Positions 16,977-23,393 of a DNA stretch of 32,765 nt are shown here, in pieces. The notes beneath the pieces were generated by a model. The model saw nothing but the letters and a program-made list of their open reading frames with translations, searched no databases and was not told the origin of the DNA. The translations under genes and the position numbers were made by a program. Origin of the DNA: Patescibacteria group bacterium (lineage in GTDB: Bacteria > Patescibacteriota > UBA1384 > 2-12-FULL-50-11); the NCBI GenBank assembly GCA_041477655.1, contig JBGOUP010000003.1, forward strand, positions 1 through 32,765, in the 5' to 3' direction. Positions within the stretch are counted from its first letter, which is position 1, and each line of letters begins with the position of its first letter.

Positions 16977-17564
16977 CTACAACTTGCGGCCACATTCATT
17001 GCGGCGATATTCAGCTTCGGCAAGGCTCTGTAACTCGCTTTCCGAAAGGAACGAAAGCCAGAAACACACCTTCCACGCTAATTCTTGTTCTCCCGCGTTA
17101 GCCTGGGGCAAATTGAGTAAGTCATAGACATGATTAATCGGAACTGGACGCGCGTCTTCATCAACACTCCAAACAAATTCTGCAGTCATATAACCCTTTT
17201 CGGAGTCTTGGCGTTTGCCTAGTCTAGCCGAGAAAACCGGTTCACCAAGAAAATGCGGCCGGATCGGCCAGCTACTCAACAATCGCCAGCTTTGTCGGAA
17301 AAGCTCCTCTGCCAGACGAATCTCGGGTTTTTCTTGCCGCTGTGACCAAAGGTTACGGATTTCGTATATCAACGCCACCCATCGAGCAGTATTACGCCGG
17401 TTACGAAAATCTTTCAGCTGACGTTTGGCCATCCCTATCGCAAAACTAATCGCTCTTGGCATCCTTTTTGTCGTTAAGCTAAGCCATAAAATGTGAAGTT
17501 GCAGTGATTTTCCAGCAAACACCTCAACAGAAACGTCGTCGTATGTATCAATTGAAAGTGCCAC
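16977..17564 (-). CDS. Hypothetical protein
   Basis: 195 aa, AAGGAGG SD before the GTG, own terminator. Confidence 0.7.
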   Translation of the reverse strand: MALSIDTYDDVSVEVFAGKSLQLHILWLSLTTKRMPRAISFAIGMAKRQLKDFRNRRNTARWVALIYEIRNLWSQRQEKPEIRLAEELFRQSWRLLSSWPIRPHFLGEPVFSARLGKRQDSEKGYMTAEFVWSVDEDARPVPINHVYDLLNLPQANAGEQELAWKVCFWLSFLSESELQSLAEAEYRRNECGRKL

Positions 17565-17804
17565 AAATTCCCCTCCTTATAGCTTTTAGATATTACTCAA
17601 TAATTGATGAGAAGTCAATAGGCGGGAAATAATGGTGAATTCAAGACCTAACGCACCACCTAAGATAAAATAAGCGGAATCAGAAAGGTGGTGCATTAAA
17701 TTCTTGAATTCATCTAAAACGTCACGGTCTTGATTTTTATATCTAGTAGTGGTATAAATAACCCGCACGCAATTTGCGTAGTACCCATAAATTTTGGTGT
17801 TCAT

Positions 17805-18539
17805 TTGGAAAAACTATTTCTCGTTTTCTTCGTTTGTCTCATCTTTGGTTGTGCTTCACCCGTCAGACAACAACAAACGTCAACTTATTCAACTTCTGGC
17901 GATTCTGCCCATTGGTTTAGAGCCGATGGAACGATCAACTGGGAAGCCGAAAAACAAGAAAAGAAAATCCCAACCGATCATGTCATCTTCCACCACACAT
18001 CTGGTCGGGCTAACCGTAGCCTAGACGAGTTGTCGAATCTAGAGCGTGAGCGTCTTTATGTCCCACGCTTTAATCCTTCTATCCCCGATCCAAACATTCC
18101 CAAAGGAACGCTGGTTCAATCTGGCCACTACCGAAAGATTAACAGCGAAAGAGCTCAAGTATTTTACGCCTACCATTGGTTGATTAGACAGGACGGCAAA
18201 TGCGAACAGTTACTCAATGACGACGAAGTTGGCTGGCATTGTGGCAATTGGGATATGAATAACAGATCCATCGCCATCTGCTTTGACGGCAACTTGGTTG
18301 GCTCAAAACCAACTGACCAACAGTATCGAGCCGCCGCCGCTCTATTAGCTGCCTATATGGCCAAATACAAAATCACCGCGGGGAATGTTATGGGACACGA
18401 CGATGTGGTTGCTACCGACTGTCCAGGAGAGTGGTTCAAAGCTGGGGGTAAAGACAAGCTTATCCAACTAGCTGTCAAACCTGATCAGTGGGTCAAATAC
18501 AAATCAGTTTACGATCAAGTTCTATCAAAGAAGCCTTGA
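17805..18539 (+). CDS. N-acetylmuramoyl-L-alanine amidase (Amidase_2/PGRP-like), probable lipoprotein
   Basis: Motifs VIFHHT, YHWLI, GWHCG, NNRSIAICFDGN and GHDDVVATDCPG. Lipobox IFGC. Upstream promoter TTGATT-17-TATAAA (17730-17758). Confidence 0.9.
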   Translation: MEKLFLVFFVCLIFGCASPVRQQQTSTYSTSGDSAHWFRADGTINWEAEKQEKKIPTDHVIFHHTSGRANRSLDELSNLERERLYVPRFNPSIPDPNIPKGTLVQSGHYRKINSERAQVFYAYHWLIRQDGKCEQLLNDDEVGWHCGNWDMNNRSIAICFDGNLVGSKPTDQQYRAAAALLAAYMAKYKITAGNVMGHDDVVATDCPGEWFKAGGKDKLIQLAVKPDQWVKYKSVYDQVLSKKP

Positions 18540-18553
18540 GCTTCACTCAACTA

Positions 18554-18588
18554 ATGCCCGTAGTATTGTGCTACGGGCATTTTTCTTC
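18554..18588 (+). terminator. Intrinsic terminator
   Basis: ATGCCCGTAG/CTACGGGCAT stem followed by TTTTCTT. Confidence 0.8.
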
Positions 18589-18610
18589 ACCCTCAAGGCT
18601 AATATAATTG

Positions 18611-18682
18611 CTCCCGGGCTTGGATTCGAACCAAGAATCTCCTCCTCCAAAGGGAGGCGTCCAACCGTTAGACGACCCGGGA
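18611..18682 (-). tRNA. tRNA-Gln(TTG)
   Basis: Reverse complement reads TCCCGGGTCGTCTAACGG...CTTTGGA...GGTTCGAATCC...CCCGGGAG. No encoded CCA. Confidence 0.93.
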
Positions 18683-18890
18683 ATGTCGCTATGCGACAGT
18701 CATATTGTACCAACTAACTGGTCGGCTGTCAGGAGTTCTGGGTCAGTAATCGTAGATTTCACTTATCCGGCCAAAAATAGCTCTTTACAGAGCGTCTTTT
18801 CGCTATCTGACTTCGCTCATAGCAGAAACGCTCCCAATTGGGAGCGTTTCTGGAAGCCGATAATCAGCTTTCAGCCTCATCCGACTTAAC

Positions 18891-18914
18891 AAAAAACAGC
18901 TCCTTGCGGAGCTA
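18891..18914 (-). terminator. Terminator of rnpB
   Basis: AGCTCC-GCAA-GGAGCT followed by GTTTTTT on the minus strand. Confidence 0.75.
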
Positions 18915-18920
18915 TCTTCT

Positions 18921-19534
18921 GGAGGTCGGTAAGCCGGGTTCTGTTCCGCCTCCGCCAAATGGCGGATAAGCGGATAACAACCATCAATCTACGCGACGGG
19001 CTAACTAGTTGCCTCTAGAAGAGAGTTGACTCAAATGGTCGAATTGCTTCGATAACGAGTCGCAACCAATTATCCATCCCGTCTTGCACCACGCCGGGTT
19101 TTGCCGCTCGCTACTATTGCTAGAGCGATTGTGGGCTCTTACCCCACTCTTTTCACCATCACCACCGCTGCTCCGCAGCGGAATTACCAATTAACAATTT
19201 CTAATTTTCAAATAATTTCCAATTATTCAATTTCCAAACTTAAAAATTGGGTCATTGATTATTACTTGAGAATTGAGACTTGAAAATTGATACTTCCAAT
19301 GCGAAGCATTGGTTAGGCAGTATTGTCTCTGTGCCACTTTCCCGCGTCTTGCGACGGCCGGCCGTTAGCCGGGGCGCTATCTAAGGTGCCCGGACTTTCC
19401 TCAAACCAACGTCAGTTAACCCCTCGACTACGCTCGGGGCAAGACAGTTTTCAGTTATCAGCAATCAGTTGAAACTGAATACTGAATACCGATCCACTGA
19501 TCTCTGTCCGAAGGATTGCGATTGTCTCGACTTC
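18921..19534 (-). ncRNA. rnpB: RNase P RNA with large insertions
   Basis: The minus strand carries GAGGAAAGTCCGG (19402-19390), GGAAAGTGGCACAGAGAC, GGTGAAAAG and 3' ACAGAACCCGGCTTA. P1 pairing GAAGTCG/CGACCTC. Confidence 0.93.
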
Positions 19535-19540
19535 GCCACA

Positions 19541-19568
19541 ATCTTAGCATTTATTTGGCAGAAGTCAA
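19541..19568 (-). promoter_or_regulatory. rnpB promoter
   Basis: TTGACT, 16 bp spacer, TGcTAAGAT extended -10, about 7 nt before the predicted 5' end. Confidence 0.65.
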
Positions 19569-19631
19569 TGGCTGGAACCATATCTTTGTAGGACTTGACA
19601 ATATTGAAGTAGATAGGCGTATAGTTAAGGC

Positions 19632-19813
19632 AGAGAAAACTAAAAACTTCGCGTCCTATGGCTAAATAGAGGCAATGAATAGCGATTTTGAGCTATGCCA
19701 AGCTGGGTATGCTTGGGAAGCCGCTTGTAAGCGGCTATGGAACGACGAAGTACGGTCGGAAAAACAGTCGGGGTAGTGTGCTTTGCTCTCCTTTCGGCAC
19801 TACCCCACTTTTT
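19632..19813 (+). ncRNA. Putative structured small RNA (unit 1); may encode a 33-aa peptide
   Basis: TTGACA-19-TATAGT promoter, several internal stems, and a terminator hairpin with T-tract. Confidence 0.45.
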
Positions 19814-19884
19814 ATACAAATAAATAATCGGATCCTTTTGATAAAGTCTGAAATATATTTAGGCAAAAGGCGTATAGTGTTAAT

Positions 19885-19949
19885 TGATCGAGTTCACCTT
19901 CCTTCCTTGGGGTCCGCAGACTTTGCTCTCCTACACTGCGGACCCCTTT
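19885..19949 (+). ncRNA. Putative small RNA (unit 2)
   Basis: Same AGGCGTATAGT -10 context as unit 1, a CCTTCCTTCCTT tract, and an 11-bp hairpin with the same CTTTGCTCTCCT loop. Confidence 0.4.
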
Positions 19950-19951
19950 AA

Positions 19952-20557
19952 TTAATTACCAAACGTTAACCGGTGTAGTTTGGTTGGCCCAAATTTACCG
20001 ATGGCTTGTTGATGGTTCTTGGTGCCATAGCCGACATTGTTTTTCCAGTCATACTCCGGCCAGAAATTATGGTAGGTTTTCATCAGTTGATCGCGATAGC
20101 ACTTGGCCACGATTGAAGCGGCCGCTACCGGATAAAAGAGCTGATCTCCTCTAATCGCTTGGATTTGCTTTGTCGAAGTTGGAGCCAGATAGTTGTCGGT
20201 AAGTAATAAGTCGAACTTTATCTTTTTTATCGCCCGTTTATAAGCTAAGTATTGGGCTTTGGCTAAGCCCAATTGGTCAATTTCAAGGTTACTGACTAGA
20301 CCTATAGACACATTGATTGAACCGCCCAGAATCTGCCAACAGAGTTTTCTTCGCCTTTCAAGCGAAAGACGTTTAGAGTCGTCTATTCCTATAATCGGCC
20401 GACTTAAACAAACTGCCGCTACCACTAGCGGGCCAGCCATTGCGCCACGCCCGACTTCATCAACGCCAACTATTTTCCGGTAGCCAAGTTTGGCTAACTG
20501 ATTTTGAAATTTAGGATCAGGCTGATTTTTTGACCAACTCGGCCGATTTAGCGACAT
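19952..20557 (-). CDS. rnhB: Ribonuclease HII
   Basis: Motifs GVDEVGRGAMAGP, DDSKRLS, AAASIVAK, NVGYGT and HRLTF. Probable start is ATG 20557, overlapping the end of uvrA. Confidence 0.95.
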   Translation of the reverse strand: MSLNRPSWSKNQPDPKFQNQLAKLGYRKIVGVDEVGRGAMAGPLVVAAVCLSRPIIGIDDSKRLSLERRRKLCWQILGGSINVSIGLVSNLEIDQLGLAKAQYLAYKRAIKKIKFDLLLTDNYLAPTSTKQIQAIRGDQLFYPVAAASIVAKCYRDQLMKTYHNFWPEYDWKNNVGYGTKNHQQAIGKFGPTKLHRLTFGN

Positions 20558-23393
20558 AATTTCCCCGACGTAAAAACCTAGCCGTGACTGATTTAGGATT
20601 GGCCATAACCGTGTCTGGAGTGCCTTCGGCGACGATCTGACCACCACGGTTGCCCCCATCTGGCCCAAGGTCAATAATCCAGTCGGCGCAACGAATAACA
20701 TCAATGTTGTGCTCAATAATAATAACAGTATTGCCTCGATCAACTAATTGATAGAGAACATTGAGCAACCGTTGGATATCTTCAAAATGAAGACCGGTAG
20801 TTGGCTCATCCAAAATATAGAGAGTTTTGCCGGTTTCCCGACGGGAAAGCTCGGTGGCTAATTTAATTCGTTGGGCCTCGCCGCCCGAAAGAGTCGTCGC
20901 CGGCTGACCGAGCCGCATATAGCCAAGGCCAACAGCGTCCAAGACATTGAGTTTTTCGATGACTTCTCCTTCGGTTTCGTCGGTGAAAAAACCAACCGCT
21001 TCATTAACTGTCATTTCCAGAACGTCACTAATGTCTTTGCTTCGATATTTTATCTCCAAAGTTTCTGGATTATAACGTTTGCCTCGACACTCTGGGCAAC
21101 TAACATAAACGTCGGGCAGAAAGTCCATCTCAATTTTTATCTGACCGTCACCCCGACAGTGCTCGCAACGTCCGCCCCGTAAATTAAAGCTAAAGCGCGA
21201 CGGATCATAGCCACGATTCATTGCTTCCTCGGTTTGAGCAAAGAGTTCGCGAATCGGCCCCAACGCCCCGGTATAAGTGGCCGGATTGGAACGAGGTGTT
21301 CGGCCGATCGGACTTTGGTCAATATTAATAATGTTGTCGACATACTCCGTACCCTGAATCTCTTGATGGGGAGCAGGTTCGGCACTGGCGCCATGAAAGT
21401 GTTTGGACAAGGCGGTGGCTAAAGTGTCTTCAACTAAGGTTGACTTACCTGATCCAGAAACACCAGTTATGCAAATTAGCCGATTTAATGGGAAGCGGGC
21501 AGTGACATCCTTTAAATTATTGCCGGTGGCACCAATTAGGGTTAGGGCTTCGGTGGCATGCTCGTGTCTATGGCCAGGCAGTTTAATGGTCTTGTGTCCG
21601 GCCAAATAGGCGCCGGTTAGGGAATTTGGGTCAGTTATAACTTGTTTGGGTGTACCGTGGGCAATAATTTCACCACCGAGTTCACCGGCGCCAGGACCCA
21701 TGTCGATAATATAATCGGCCGCTAACATAGTGTCGCGGTCGTGTTCAACAACGATAACGGTATTATCGCGATTTTTCAGTTCCTGAATGGTTTTGAGCAA
21801 TTTTTGGTGATCTCGGGGGTGCAAACCAATCGATGGCTCATCAAGGATGTAGATGACGCCAGTTAAACCCGAACCAAGTTGAGTGGCCAGCCGAACCCGC
21901 TGGGCTTCACCACCAGCTAAGGTTGAGGTGGTCCGATCCAGGGTGACGTAACCCAAGCCAACTTCCAGCAGATAAAGCAGTCTTGAACAGACTTCTTTGA
22001 AGATCGGTTTAACAATTCGCTGTTGATCGGCGCTGAATTTATCAACCAAGCCATCAAAAAATTGACCGGCTTCTTCGATGGTCATGGCGGTAACGTCAAT
22101 AATGTTTTTTTTATCAATCAAGATAGACAAGACTTCGATTCGGAGTCGCTGACCTTTACAAGTCTTGCAGACCCGCTCAACCATGTATTTCTCAATCTCA
22201 TTTTTTAGATAATCGGAATCGGTTTCGTGGTAACGCCGCTCCAAATTGGGCAAAATACCTTCAAATCGCTCCTCTTCTTCCGATTTCTCGTTTTCAACTG
22301 GCTCGCCGTAAAGCAGAATTTCCAGGGTCTTTTCGGGTAGCTCGCCAACAGCCGTATCCAGGCTGAACTTGTAACGCTTAGACATATCAGTCAGGACTTT
22401 TTGGTACCAGTTGGAGTGGCTGGTTGTTCGGCTCCAAGGCCTAATTGCCCCTTCAGCCAGAGTTAGTCTAGGATTTGGGATAACTAAATCTTTATCCGCT
22501 ACCATTTGTAAGCCAAGACCCTGGCAAATTTGACAAGCACCTTCAGGGTTATTGAAGGAAAAGAGTCTGGGCTCGATATCGGGGAATTGCCAGCCGCACT
22601 GGCTACAAGCGTAGCGTTGAGAGTAGAATCGCTCGTTGTTACCTTCAAGGTCAGTGCCGATAACTAAACCGTTGCCCAGTTTAAGTGCTCGATCAACCAA
22701 CTTTGACAGATCAACTTTAGCAATCTGCTCGGATTGGTCGTTGGCTACCGGAAAATCAACACGACCGACCACCAAATCCAAATTATGACTCTTATTTTTA
22801 TCAACGCTTAAGGAGATAGCTTCGTCGACGTCCATTTCGGTACCATCAAATCGAACCCGGACTATATTTAGCTTTTTAGCCTGTTTTAGGTGGTATTTAT
22901 GTTCGCCTTTGCGATTTTGAACAATCGGACTAAGTAATTTAACTTGAAGCTGATCGTGGCTGGTAAACTGCTTCAAAATATGACGAGTTATTGTCTCTGG
23001 CTGTTGTTGAGTGATGACGATGCCACATTTTGGGCAATATGGCGTACCAGCGCGAGAGAAAAGCAATCGCAAGAAGTCGTAGATTTCAGTTGCCGTAGCT
23101 ACTGTTGAGCGAGGATTTCTAGCGGCCGTTTTCTGATCAATGGCAATAGCCGGTGCCAAGCCCTCAATCGAATCAAAATCCGGCTTTTCAATATCGCTTA
23201 AGAATTGGCGGACATATGAGGATAAACTCTCAACATATCGACGCTGTCCCTCGGCAAAAATGGTGTCGAAGGCCAGTGACGACTTACCAGAGCCAGACAG
23301 ACCGGTCACCACAGTGACCATGTTTTTGGGAATCTCTAAATTGAGATTTTTCAAATTGTGTGTTCTGGCTCCAACAACGCGTATCGTATCCAT
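20517..23393 (-). CDS. uvrA: Excinuclease ABC subunit A
   Basis: Motifs GARTHNLKN, TGLSGSGKSSLAFDT, zinc fingers, second Walker A GVSGSGKST and LSGGEAQRIKLA. Confidence 0.98.
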   Translation of the reverse strand: MDTIRVVGARTHNLKNLNLEIPKNMVTVVTGLSGSGKSSLAFDTIFAEGQRRYVESLSSYVRQFLSDIEKPDFDSIEGLAPAIAIDQKTAARNPRSTVATATEIYDFLRLLFSRAGTPYCPKCGIVITQQQPETITRHILKQFTSHDQLQVKLLSPIVQNRKGEHKYHLKQAKKLNIVRVRFDGTEMDVDEAISLSVDKNKSHNLDLVVGRVDFPVANDQSEQIAKVDLSKLVDRALKLGNGLVIGTDLEGNNERFYSQRYACSQCGWQFPDIEPRLFSFNNPEGACQICQGLGLQMVADKDLVIPNPRLTLAEGAIRPWSRTTSHSNWYQKVLTDMSKRYKFSLDTAVGELPEKTLEILLYGEPVENEKSEEEERFEGILPNLERRYHETDSDYLKNEIEKYMVERVCKTCKGQRLRIEVLSILIDKKNIIDVTAMTIEEAGQFFDGLVDKFSADQQRIVKPIFKEVCSRLLYLLEVGLGYVTLDRTTSTLAGGEAQRVRLATQLGSGLTGVIYILDEPSIGLHPRDHQKLLKTIQELKNRDNTVIVVEHDRDTMLAADYIIDMGPGAGELGGEIIAHGTPKQVITDPNSLTGAYLAGHKTIKLPGHRHEHATEALTLIGATGNNLKDVTARFPLNRLICITGVSGSGKSTLVEDTLATALSKHFHGASAEPAPHQEIQGTEYVDNIINIDQSPIGRTPRSNPATYTGALGPIRELFAQTEEAMNRGYDPSRFSFNLRGGRCEHCRGDGQIKIEMDFLPDVYVSCPECRGKRYNPETLEIKYRSKDISDVLEMTVNEAVGFFTDETEGEVIEKLNVLDAVGLGYMRLGQPATTLSGGEAQRIKLATELSRRETGKTLYILDEPTTGLHFEDIQRLLNVLYQLVDRGNTVIIIEHNIDVIRCADWIIDLGPDGGNRGGQIVAEGTPDTVMANPKSVTARFLRRGNYVAKSAELVKKSA

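Follow-up and report, generated by a model that had tools for sequence, protein, structure and literature searches.

The window analysed here is a 32,765-nt stretch of the genome of a member of the Patescibacteria, or Candidate Phyla Radiation (CPR). In the 525-nt gap between the genes for RNase P RNA (rnpB) and RNase HII (rnhB) it carries, on the plus strand, two tandem units that look like genuine, selected, non-coding RNA genes. The window corresponds to contig C11 of genome G000, which comprises 748,184 bases in 48 contigs, is 94% complete, and has a G+C content of 46%; this is the usual genome size for ultra-small CPR bacteria. G000 was compared with 18 relatives of the same family (G001 to G018) and with a class set of 162 genomes. 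The features of the gap and the two genes that flank it are as follows.

18914-19427, minus strand: rnpB (RNase P RNA, class A; Rfam RF00010, 135.1 bits)
19541-19568, minus strand: rnpB promoter from a promoter scan (TTGACT-16-TAAGAT, TG present), adjoining the unit 1 promoter back to back
19595-19625, plus strand: unit 1 promoter, TTGACA (19595-19600), 19 nt, TATAGT (19620-19625), with the block AGGCGTATAGT at 19615-19625
19632-19813, plus strand: predicted unit 1 transcript of about 181 nt, its ends placed by the -10 element and the T run
19770-19806, plus strand: unit 1 terminator hairpin, 10 bp, with a 17-nt loop GCTTTGCTCTCCTTTCG (19780-19796) and T5 at 19809-19813
19848-19878, plus strand: promoter-like region of unit 2, CTGAAA (19848-19853), 19 nt, TATAGT (19873-19878), with the block AGGCGTATAGT at 19868-19878
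19885-19950, plus strand: predicted unit 2 transcript of about 65 nt with predicted ends, fold z score -4.40
19897-19908, plus strand: C/U tract CCTTCCTTCCTT, predicted to be single-stranded, directly 5' of the unit 2 hairpin
19909-19946, plus strand: unit 2 hairpin, 11 bp, with a 16-nt loop ACTTTGCTCTCCTACA (19920-19935) and the weak T tail TTTAATT
19952-20557, minus strand: rnhB (RNase HII; Pfam PF01351, RNase_HII, 5e-29), convergent with both units

An earlier reading made from the sequence alone (the sequence-only reading) had described promoter, hairpin, and loop elements for both units and a further tract in unit 2, and all of them were found where it had placed them. Given that rnpB is on the minus strand, the units are divergent from rnpB, as that reading had also proposed. 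The unit 2 hairpin and the stop codon of rnhB are 5 nt apart.

Hairpin 1 is formed by the arms GGGGTAGTGT (19770-19779) and GCACTACCCC (19797-19806), with ACTTTTT next, and hairpin 2 by the arms GGGGTCCGCAG (19909-19919) and CTGCGGACCCC (19936-19946). With its 10-bp stem and T5, unit 1 has the form of an intrinsic terminator; unit 2 has an 11-bp stem and a tail of just TTTAATT. The two loops have a 12-nt block in common, CTTTGCTCTCCT, at 19781-19792 in unit 1 and 19921-19932 in unit 2. The stems are alike only at the outer GGGGT/ACCCC, and the inner pairs all differ on both sides and are still paired. Changed stems around a shared 12-nt loop are the reverse of what a drifting duplication leaves. 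The predicted fold of unit 1 (-60.6 kcal/mol, z score -2.74 versus shuffles) is a multibranch structure plus the terminator.

The 12-mer occurs in two exact copies in the whole 748,184-base genome, and a search of the window with up to one mismatch gave two matches versus 0.16 expected. Both the exact 10-mer GGCGTATAGT and the 11-nt promoter block AGGCGTATAGT are found genome-wide only at units 1 and 2. Further copies of the loop hairpin, for which the sequence-only reading had advised a search, did not emerge: only the two known ones are present, and the three one-mismatch copies of the 12-mer in the genome all lie outside hairpin loops. A scan of G000 for hairpins with CTCC in large loops gave 74 matches, and the three other candidates inspected (on contigs C8, C12, and C7) were all within open reading frames (ORFs). 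A simple terminator and promoter scan lists neither of the two hairpins and neither unit promoter, because it accepts only loops of 3-8 nt and promoter spacers of 16-18 nt.

The region 17000-23000 of the window is partly present in 17 DNA runs from sediment metagenomes, and no RNA run was listed for it. Contigs from four DNA runs, which also gave fragments of other organisms, provided strain variants: the unit 2 loop is altered in its 3' portion, at positions 19933 and 19935, with the 12-mer intact (one low-depth contig), and C19871T lies in the unit 2 promoter block (likewise one low-depth contig).

Conservation of the locus in relatives

We found rnhB in all 19 family genomes. Rfam places rnpB next to it, in the same orientation, in 14 of the 18 relatives. 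Two others, G005 and G007, have a 5' portion of rnpB that can be recognised by eye but that Rfam leaves uncalled. Nine of the 18 relatives (G004, G005, G007, G008, G009, G012, G013, G015, and G016) have a same-oriented unit at the locus, built of a promoter-like block followed by a strong hairpin and a T run beside the rnhB stop codon; in the window and the relatives the hairpins lie 5-30 nt from that stop. An exposed CUCC motif is present in six of these nine units, at the following sites.

G007 (genus g8), terminator loop: AGCTTGCTCTCCTTTCAC
G008 (genus g9), terminator loop: GCTTTGTACTCCTTTCA
G004 (genus g5), terminator loop: ACTGTCCTCTCCA
G009 (genus g2), terminator loop: TCTGTCCTCTCCG
G012 (genus g2), terminator loop: ...GGGACTCCTTCCCC...
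G005 (genus g6), single strand 5' of the terminator, the counterpart of the unit 2 C/U tract: TTCTCCTCTCCA

Two relatives were left out of the judgement, G014 with another gene context and G017 with a contig end at the locus. The remaining seven (G001, G002, G003, G006, G010, G011, and G018) are without a unit, and their gap of 49-100 nt, counted as printed with 12 nt of rnhB included, has room for the rnpB promoter only.

Unit 1 thus appears to have positional orthologues in six other genera. No second unit was found in the relatives, each locus giving one plus-strand model match, and unit 2 appears to be local to G000 among the genomes searched. The proposal of the sequence-only reading that the two are sibling RNAs therefore holds with respect to the common promoter block and loop but not in the sense of equals: unit 1 has orthologues, whereas unit 2 is probably a short local sibling that has retained the promoter block and loop only.

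The unit bodies are poorly conserved. A MAFFT alignment of all nine units had a mean column identity of 35% with no usable body structure, and it put the 3' arms of the hairpins out of register. BLAST searches with the G009 and G004 units against three and five congeners, respectively, gave chance-level matches only (E of at least 0.046); the searches missed even the unit that G012 has at this locus, and the bodies are untraceable by sequence. One short motif recurs.

19745-19750, plus strand: ACGAAG, a purine-rich motif present in 5 of 10 unit bodies; in 300 shuffles no 6-mer reached 5

Metagenome contigs retrieved by way of RnhB gave 46 loci with a best identity of 44%; all were more distant than the family genomes and were left out of the comparison for that reason. 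Contigs of another organism, from three sediment runs, contain a terminator region similar to that of unit 1 (60 nt with eight differences and one gap). These contigs, which have loose ends at 19754 and 19813, have a different purine-rich upstream sequence with AACGAAAGAGAGAAC.

Terminator hairpins and promoters

A first covariance model, built from unit 1 and the G008 unit, recovered the hairpins of G007, unit 2, and G012, and these five hairpins constitute our alignment A6. In A6, 98% of cells form standard pairs, versus 33-49% with the partners slid. Nine of the ten pairs have changed on both sides, and the covariation score was reached by none of 500 shuffles. Pairwise identity was 75% for the loop and 42.5% for the stem. 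Given that the sequences are related and were fitted to the model, this covariation is supportive and does not amount to a formal test. Stems that covary around a kept loop, both within the window and across six genera, support the view that the loop is the selected part. The sequence-only reading had suggested such selection and had named covariation in relatives as a check on it, and the result agrees with both.

On the plus strand, the rebuilt model R2 scored 49.2 bits for hairpin 1 and 43.5 bits for hairpin 2, compared with 15.4 and 14.8 bits for the same two hairpins on the minus strand. Outside the training set, the hairpins at the syntenic locus scored best on the plus strand, with 18.0 bits in G009 and 14.1 bits in G004. 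At least five T residues follow the hairpin on the plus strand in 9 of 11 cases, the exceptions being unit 2 (TTT) and G005 (TTTT), and a run of A is found on the other side of the hairpin in just 2 of 11. This polarity marks them as putative terminators of plus-strand transcripts. Their loops measure 13-18 nt, compared with 3-8 nt in the generic terminator scan rule.

The promoter-like blocks are also kept in part. The segment TAGGCGTATAGTTAA of the unit 1 promoter block is identical in G005, and the block up to and including the -10 element reads AGGCATACGAT in G009, AGGCGCATCGT in G012, AGGTATATACT in G004, and CGGCGTAAATT in G008; the -10 element is preceded by AGGCG, AGGCA, or AGGTA in G004, G009, and G012 and by CGGCG in G008. 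CTTGACA is kept in five relatives. Its distance to the -10 element is 8 nt in G004 and G005, 17 nt in G012, 18 nt in G008 and G009, and 19 nt in the window. The sequence-only reading had taken the 19-bp spacers as a possible sign of activator dependence; given that the spacer varies in this way in the relatives, there is no ground for that suggestion. The -35 element of rnpB is kept in the relatives as AAGTCAA. With the kept promoter-like blocks and the plus-strand T runs, the units may be independent transcription units.

Loop sequence and Shine-Dalgarno use

The 3' end of the G000 16S rRNA is ...GGATCACCTCCTTTCTAG, and the unit 1 loop has 8 nt in common with this tail, CUCCUUUC. The loop is therefore complementary to a Shine-Dalgarno (SD) sequence plus spacer, GAAAGGAGAGCAAAG, and its description as anti-SD-like by the sequence-only reading is borne out by the organism's own 16S rRNA. 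The loops of unit 1, G007, and G008 all contain CTCCTTTC. The pattern TTGYWCTCCTTTC was found at 32 places in the class, compared with 18 for the reversed control. Thirty of the 32 places were inspected: three are hairpins, namely those of G000, G007, and G008, and 11 are the complement of an SD-spacer-ATG arrangement with CAT directly upstream. The loop sequence is thus antisense to a strong ribosome-binding site of the kind typical for these organisms, as far as the start codon. The pattern CTTTGCTCTCC is present at 89 places in 60 of the 162 class genomes. None of the 29 places inspected has a loop context, the hairpin-holding G000 locus L134 being outside the 29; among relatives, a loop context for a sequence of this type was seen only in G104.

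SD use in G000 looks weak. An SD 4-mer precedes the longest-ORF start in 134 of 632 long ORFs and any early start in at most 231 of 632, compared with a background of 5.4% per in-frame internal start, and GGAG peaks at -12 to -8. This rough count, made with no gene caller, gives no demonstration of leaderless genes, so that the "many leaderless genes" of the sequence-only reading are reduced to weak SD use. Neither an Hfq domain nor a CsrA domain was found in G000.

Distribution in the class

When R2 was run over 151 class genomes at E values up to 0.1, it detected the hairpin only in G000 (twice), G007, G008, G012, and G104. G104 belongs to another family. Its hairpin (29.7 bits; locus L131, 1499-1540) reads GGGGGTGTG-CTTTGCTCTCCGGCCT-CACACACCCCC and has 16 consecutive nt in common with unit 1, GTGTGCTTTGCTCTCC. 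It is located 60 nt upstream of a divergent gene for a nucleotidyltransferase; a second hairpin, but no T run, comes after it. Over the family, R2 gave just two further matches, one (23.8 bits) at the weak terminator that ends a small ORF in G002 and one within an ORF on contig C8 of G000. Whole-genome searches with the models R1 and R3 gave nothing beyond the sequences used to train them, because the first filter passed 0-1 candidates. Given that these searches go through a loose first filter and that R2 misses the type of hairpin present in G004 and G009, failure to detect the element elsewhere carries little weight.

Comparison with known RNA families

A search of the window with Rfam 15 at gathering scores detected only rnpB and three tRNAs. 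At E values up to 10, the region 19430-19990 gave only Bacilli-1, on the minus strand, with 20.3 bits versus the 55.6 required. The sequence-only reading had recognised no known family, and the Rfam search likewise gave no fit. We also considered individual candidates. The RsaE/RoxS family proper gave no Rfam match of any kind. The signal recognition particle (SRP) RNA (4.5S) and 6S RNA were tried since neither is found elsewhere in G000; the former was rejected because neither RF00169 nor RF01854 has a match in G000 and the SRP_SPB and SRP54 domains were likewise not found there, and the latter because G000 has no match to RF00013 and unit 1 folds as a multibranch structure plus terminator. 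A CsrB/RsmZ-type sponge on the minus strand was rejected on the basis of the missing CsrA domain, the presence of two loops only, and a T-run polarity that favours the plus strand.

OmrA/OmrB, PrrF1/PrrF2, and the pneumococcal csRNAs, which have anti-SD stretches, are tandem or sibling small RNAs (sRNAs), paralogues that share seed and promoter logic and differ elsewhere. The units described here, in contrast, share just the 11-nt promoter block and the 12-nt loop, differ threefold in length, and have orthologues for the long one only. Like plain Rho-independent terminators they have a G+C-rich stem and a T run and are found where a convergent gene ends, but their loops are 13-18 nt instead of 3-8 nt and are conserved across genera while the stems change.

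The unpaired, conserved C-rich motif and variable helices that characterise the class of C-rich anti-SD sRNAs are found here, CUCC being exposed in both units of the window. In Staphylococcus aureus, the unpaired UCCC motif of RsaE and the hairpin loops of RNAIII bind SD regions and block formation of the initiation complex (PMC2790875). As predicted, the units would resemble RsaE/RoxS and RNAIII as described there, that is, short, stable, Hfq-independent sRNAs with an intrinsic terminator and an unpaired conserved C-rich loop motif among variable helices (PMC2790875). They differ from RsaE/RoxS in having no sequence or Rfam kinship, in the motif, which is CUCUCC(UUUC) instead of UCCC/CCCC and, at its full 12-15 nt, mirrors both the 16S tail and the SD spacer, in the phylum (CPR), and in that their function is a prediction. 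A study of RepG of Helicobacter pylori describes a C/U-rich seed in the loop of the terminator hairpin, with the stem-loop alone sufficing for repression (PMC8295292), and the C/U-rich element of the units is likewise placed within the loop of a terminator hairpin. Unlike the units, RepG targets a G-repeat in one mRNA leader (PMC8295292) and not an SD-like sequence, and it is unrelated in sequence and has no tandem sibling.

A full-text literature search, supplements excluded, found no paper on a regulatory sRNA of CPR/Patescibacteria and none on this element. The units would constitute a new sRNA family, with a mechanism of a type already known.

Other features of the window and genome

Unit 1 includes a motif that is also present outside the locus.

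19693-19740, plus strand: 48-nt two-hairpin motif within unit 1, CCAAGC/GCTTGG and GCCGCT/AGCGGC

Seven copies were found in 5 of the 162 class genomes, in genera g1 and g5 only (the window and loci L007, L008, L009, L011, and L012). Copies that are 80-94% identical are located at unrelated loci in four of the six genomes of genus g5, in tandem in G018. Mean column identity was 82%. The motif was rejected as a proven RNA structure, given that there is one compensatory pair only, in the window copy, and that the shuffle control was not exceeded. It can alternatively be read as a candidate TTGGGA-17-TATAGT promoter with palindromes, and may represent a module at the RNA level, an operator-promoter at the DNA level, or a small mobile element.

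The neighbouring genes include a tRNA-Gln gene on the minus strand of the window and, upstream of rnhB, the following.

20517-23393, minus strand: uvrA

The rnhB start codon, an ATG at 20557-20555 with GGGGAAATT before it, lies 41 nt within the 3' end of uvrA (20517-20557), so that the two genes overlap on the same strand. The rnpB gene is 514 nt long, compared with 367 positions in the model, and has an AT-rich insertion (19185-19325, minus strand, about 110 nt) that forms one long hairpin with a fold z score of -5.0. In G005 and G007, SD-led ORFs of 77-87 amino acids follow at the site of this insertion, and rnpB is no longer called by Rfam; the small ORFs adjoining rnpB in these two genomes gave no Pfam match. 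The rnpB promoter (19541-19568) is about 105 nt upstream of the 5' end of rnpB called by Rfam, a distance that is less than 10 nt in the relatives, and the extra leader (19428-19540, minus strand) is of low complexity with repeats of the CAGTT/ACTGA type.

A further observation concerns the SRP. SRP RNA (RF00169) was detected in none of 151 class genomes, and just 1 of 162, G118, gave a full-length GTPase domain of the SRP54 type (Ffh/FtsY), on a short contig, the others showing P-loop stretches only. In G000 no SRP_SPB or SRP54 domain and no small or large SRP RNA was found, and a tblastn search with the Ffh-like ORF of G118 gave a best E value of 0.49. The whole class seems to be without an SRP system. 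A literature search found no paper on SRP loss in this class. Such an absence, if real, would be more surprising than the sRNA finding.

Discussion

We propose that the rnpB-rnhB gap contains two tandem plus-strand sRNA genes, each with its own promoter and hairpin end. Unit 1 would be the local representative of an sRNA gene that about half of the family has at this position, in divergent orientation to rnpB. The working part would be the exposed C/U-rich sequence ...CUUUGCUCUCCU(UUC)..., kept open in the large 13-18-nt loop of the terminator hairpin, with unit 2 and the G005 unit having an extra C/U tract in single strand just 5' of the hairpin. The loop would pair with the ribosome-binding regions of SD-led mRNAs and keep the 30S subunit off, without Hfq. 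The units would then be Hfq-independent base-pairing sRNAs that mask ribosome-binding sites in the manner of RsaE, RNAIII, or RepG, and we give this interpretation about an even chance of being correct.

Several points weigh against it. Transcription, the transcript ends, the pairing, the repression, and the mRNAs hit are all inferred. Seven of the 16 judgeable relatives have no unit at the locus, and loosely filtered model searches together with BLAST searches did not find one elsewhere in their genomes; the RNA is therefore either dispensable or too fast-evolving to trace. Among the nine syntenic units, those of G013, G015, and G016 are terminators with no exposed CUCC, and the bodies cannot be aligned even inside one genus. 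At 8 to 19 nt, the spacing from TTGACA to the -10 element is irregular among the relatives, the -35 element of unit 2 (CTGAAA) is as poor as its T tail is weak, and the covariation alignment consists of just five related sequences fitted to a model. Finally, duplex scans of the genome and of 2,587 candidate starts revealed no outstanding target. The best duplexes, of about -17 to -21 kcal/mol, were with generic SD-led genes (-17 to -19 for AAGGAGG-led starts), and the best extended match, GTAGGAGAGCTAAAC on contig C25, falls within coding sequence, over codons 9-14 of an ORF for a membrane protein. The complementary target sites anticipated by the sequence-only reading were thus not convincingly found at any start site.

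The lack of an mRNA that stands out would also be expected of a protein decoy or mimic of the 16S tail, in which the pyrimidine loop titrates a protein that normally binds the 16S tail or pyrimidine-rich single strands, such as ribosomal protein S1 or S21, a nuclease for maturation of the rRNA 3' end, or an initiation factor. The 8 nt in common with the 16S tail of the same genome, the nearly all-pyrimidine composition of a loop held open at 13-18 nt, and the repetition of the same loop in tandem, as sponge RNAs have, are also compatible with such a role. Known decoy RNAs, however, usually have many sites instead of one or two. The loops of G004 and G009 (CUGUCCUCUCC), moreover, retain only the CUCC core and not the UUUC of the tail, so that SD pairing fits better than tail mimicry. 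We therefore consider a decoy unlikely. A related view, to which we likewise assign a low probability, is that the units provide the anti-SD tail in trans, as a freely displayed duplicate of the 16S tail, in a lineage with a minority of SD-led genes. They would then act globally, either in competition with ribosomes for all SD-led genes or by titrating a factor of the 16S tail, instead of regulating one or a few mRNAs; the two units would then be long and short dosage forms under one shared promoter element.

The hairpins might alternatively serve as transcription punctuation only, separating rnhB read-through from transcription from the rnpB promoter, with the plus-strand promoters giving by-product transcripts that have no role in trans and the likeness of the loops resulting from recent local duplication or gene conversion. 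Their position 5-30 nt from the rnhB stop codon, the T run that unit 1 and G004 have on the other strand too, the three of nine syntenic units that are terminators with no C/U motif, and the seven relatives that manage without a unit are all consistent with this role. Those relatives, however, have no hairpin between rnhB and the rnpB promoter in their gaps of 49-100 nt, and rnhB therefore needs none. A duplication would also be expected to keep the stems and let the loop drift, the opposite of what was observed; near-identical loops are located on unrelated stems in three genera and another family, and plain terminators do not typically have loops as large as 13-18 nt. Punctuation alone therefore appears to be a rather poor explanation.

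Function on the minus strand is more doubtful still. Here, GGAG SD-like loops in an rnhB-rnpB read-through transcript would bind the anti-SD tail or a CsrA-like protein, or would guide processing of the rnpB precursor. The two genes are indeed adjacent and co-oriented in 14 of the 18 relatives, and the palindromic stems would fold on that strand too, with minus-strand model matches of 15-18 bits. But rnpB is served by a separate, conserved promoter that is located downstream of the hairpins, T runs come after 9 of the 11 hairpins on the plus strand and after 2 of 11 on the minus strand, no CsrA domain was found in G000, no start codon follows the SD-like loop sequence, and conserved promoter blocks precede the units on the plus strand. 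That the units are antitoxin RNAs of a type I toxin-antitoxin system, an option mentioned by the sequence-only reading, or small protein-coding genes is very improbable: chance ORFs of 33 amino acids on the plus strand (19675-19776) and 59 amino acids on the minus strand (19640-19819) do exist, but the latter, the sole antisense ORF, is basic, non-hydrophobic, without an SD sequence, started by TTG, and unconserved in the relatives, which leaves no toxin-like partner, the former has its SD-like GAGG just 2 nt from the ATG and ends within the terminator stem, no small ORF is common to the unit bodies of the relatives, and unit 2 has no ATG.

To our knowledge, CPR bacteria are uncultured and lack the usual RNA chaperones. 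Masking of ribosome-binding sites by the two units would, if confirmed, be a mechanism of known type. The seed copies the anti-SD tail of the ribosome in a genome in which SD-led genes seem to be a minority, which leads to the prediction that the SD-led subset would be the regulon. A conserved sRNA locus beside rnpB, with covarying stems and a kept loop, may thus provide an entry point to post-transcriptional control in the CPR.

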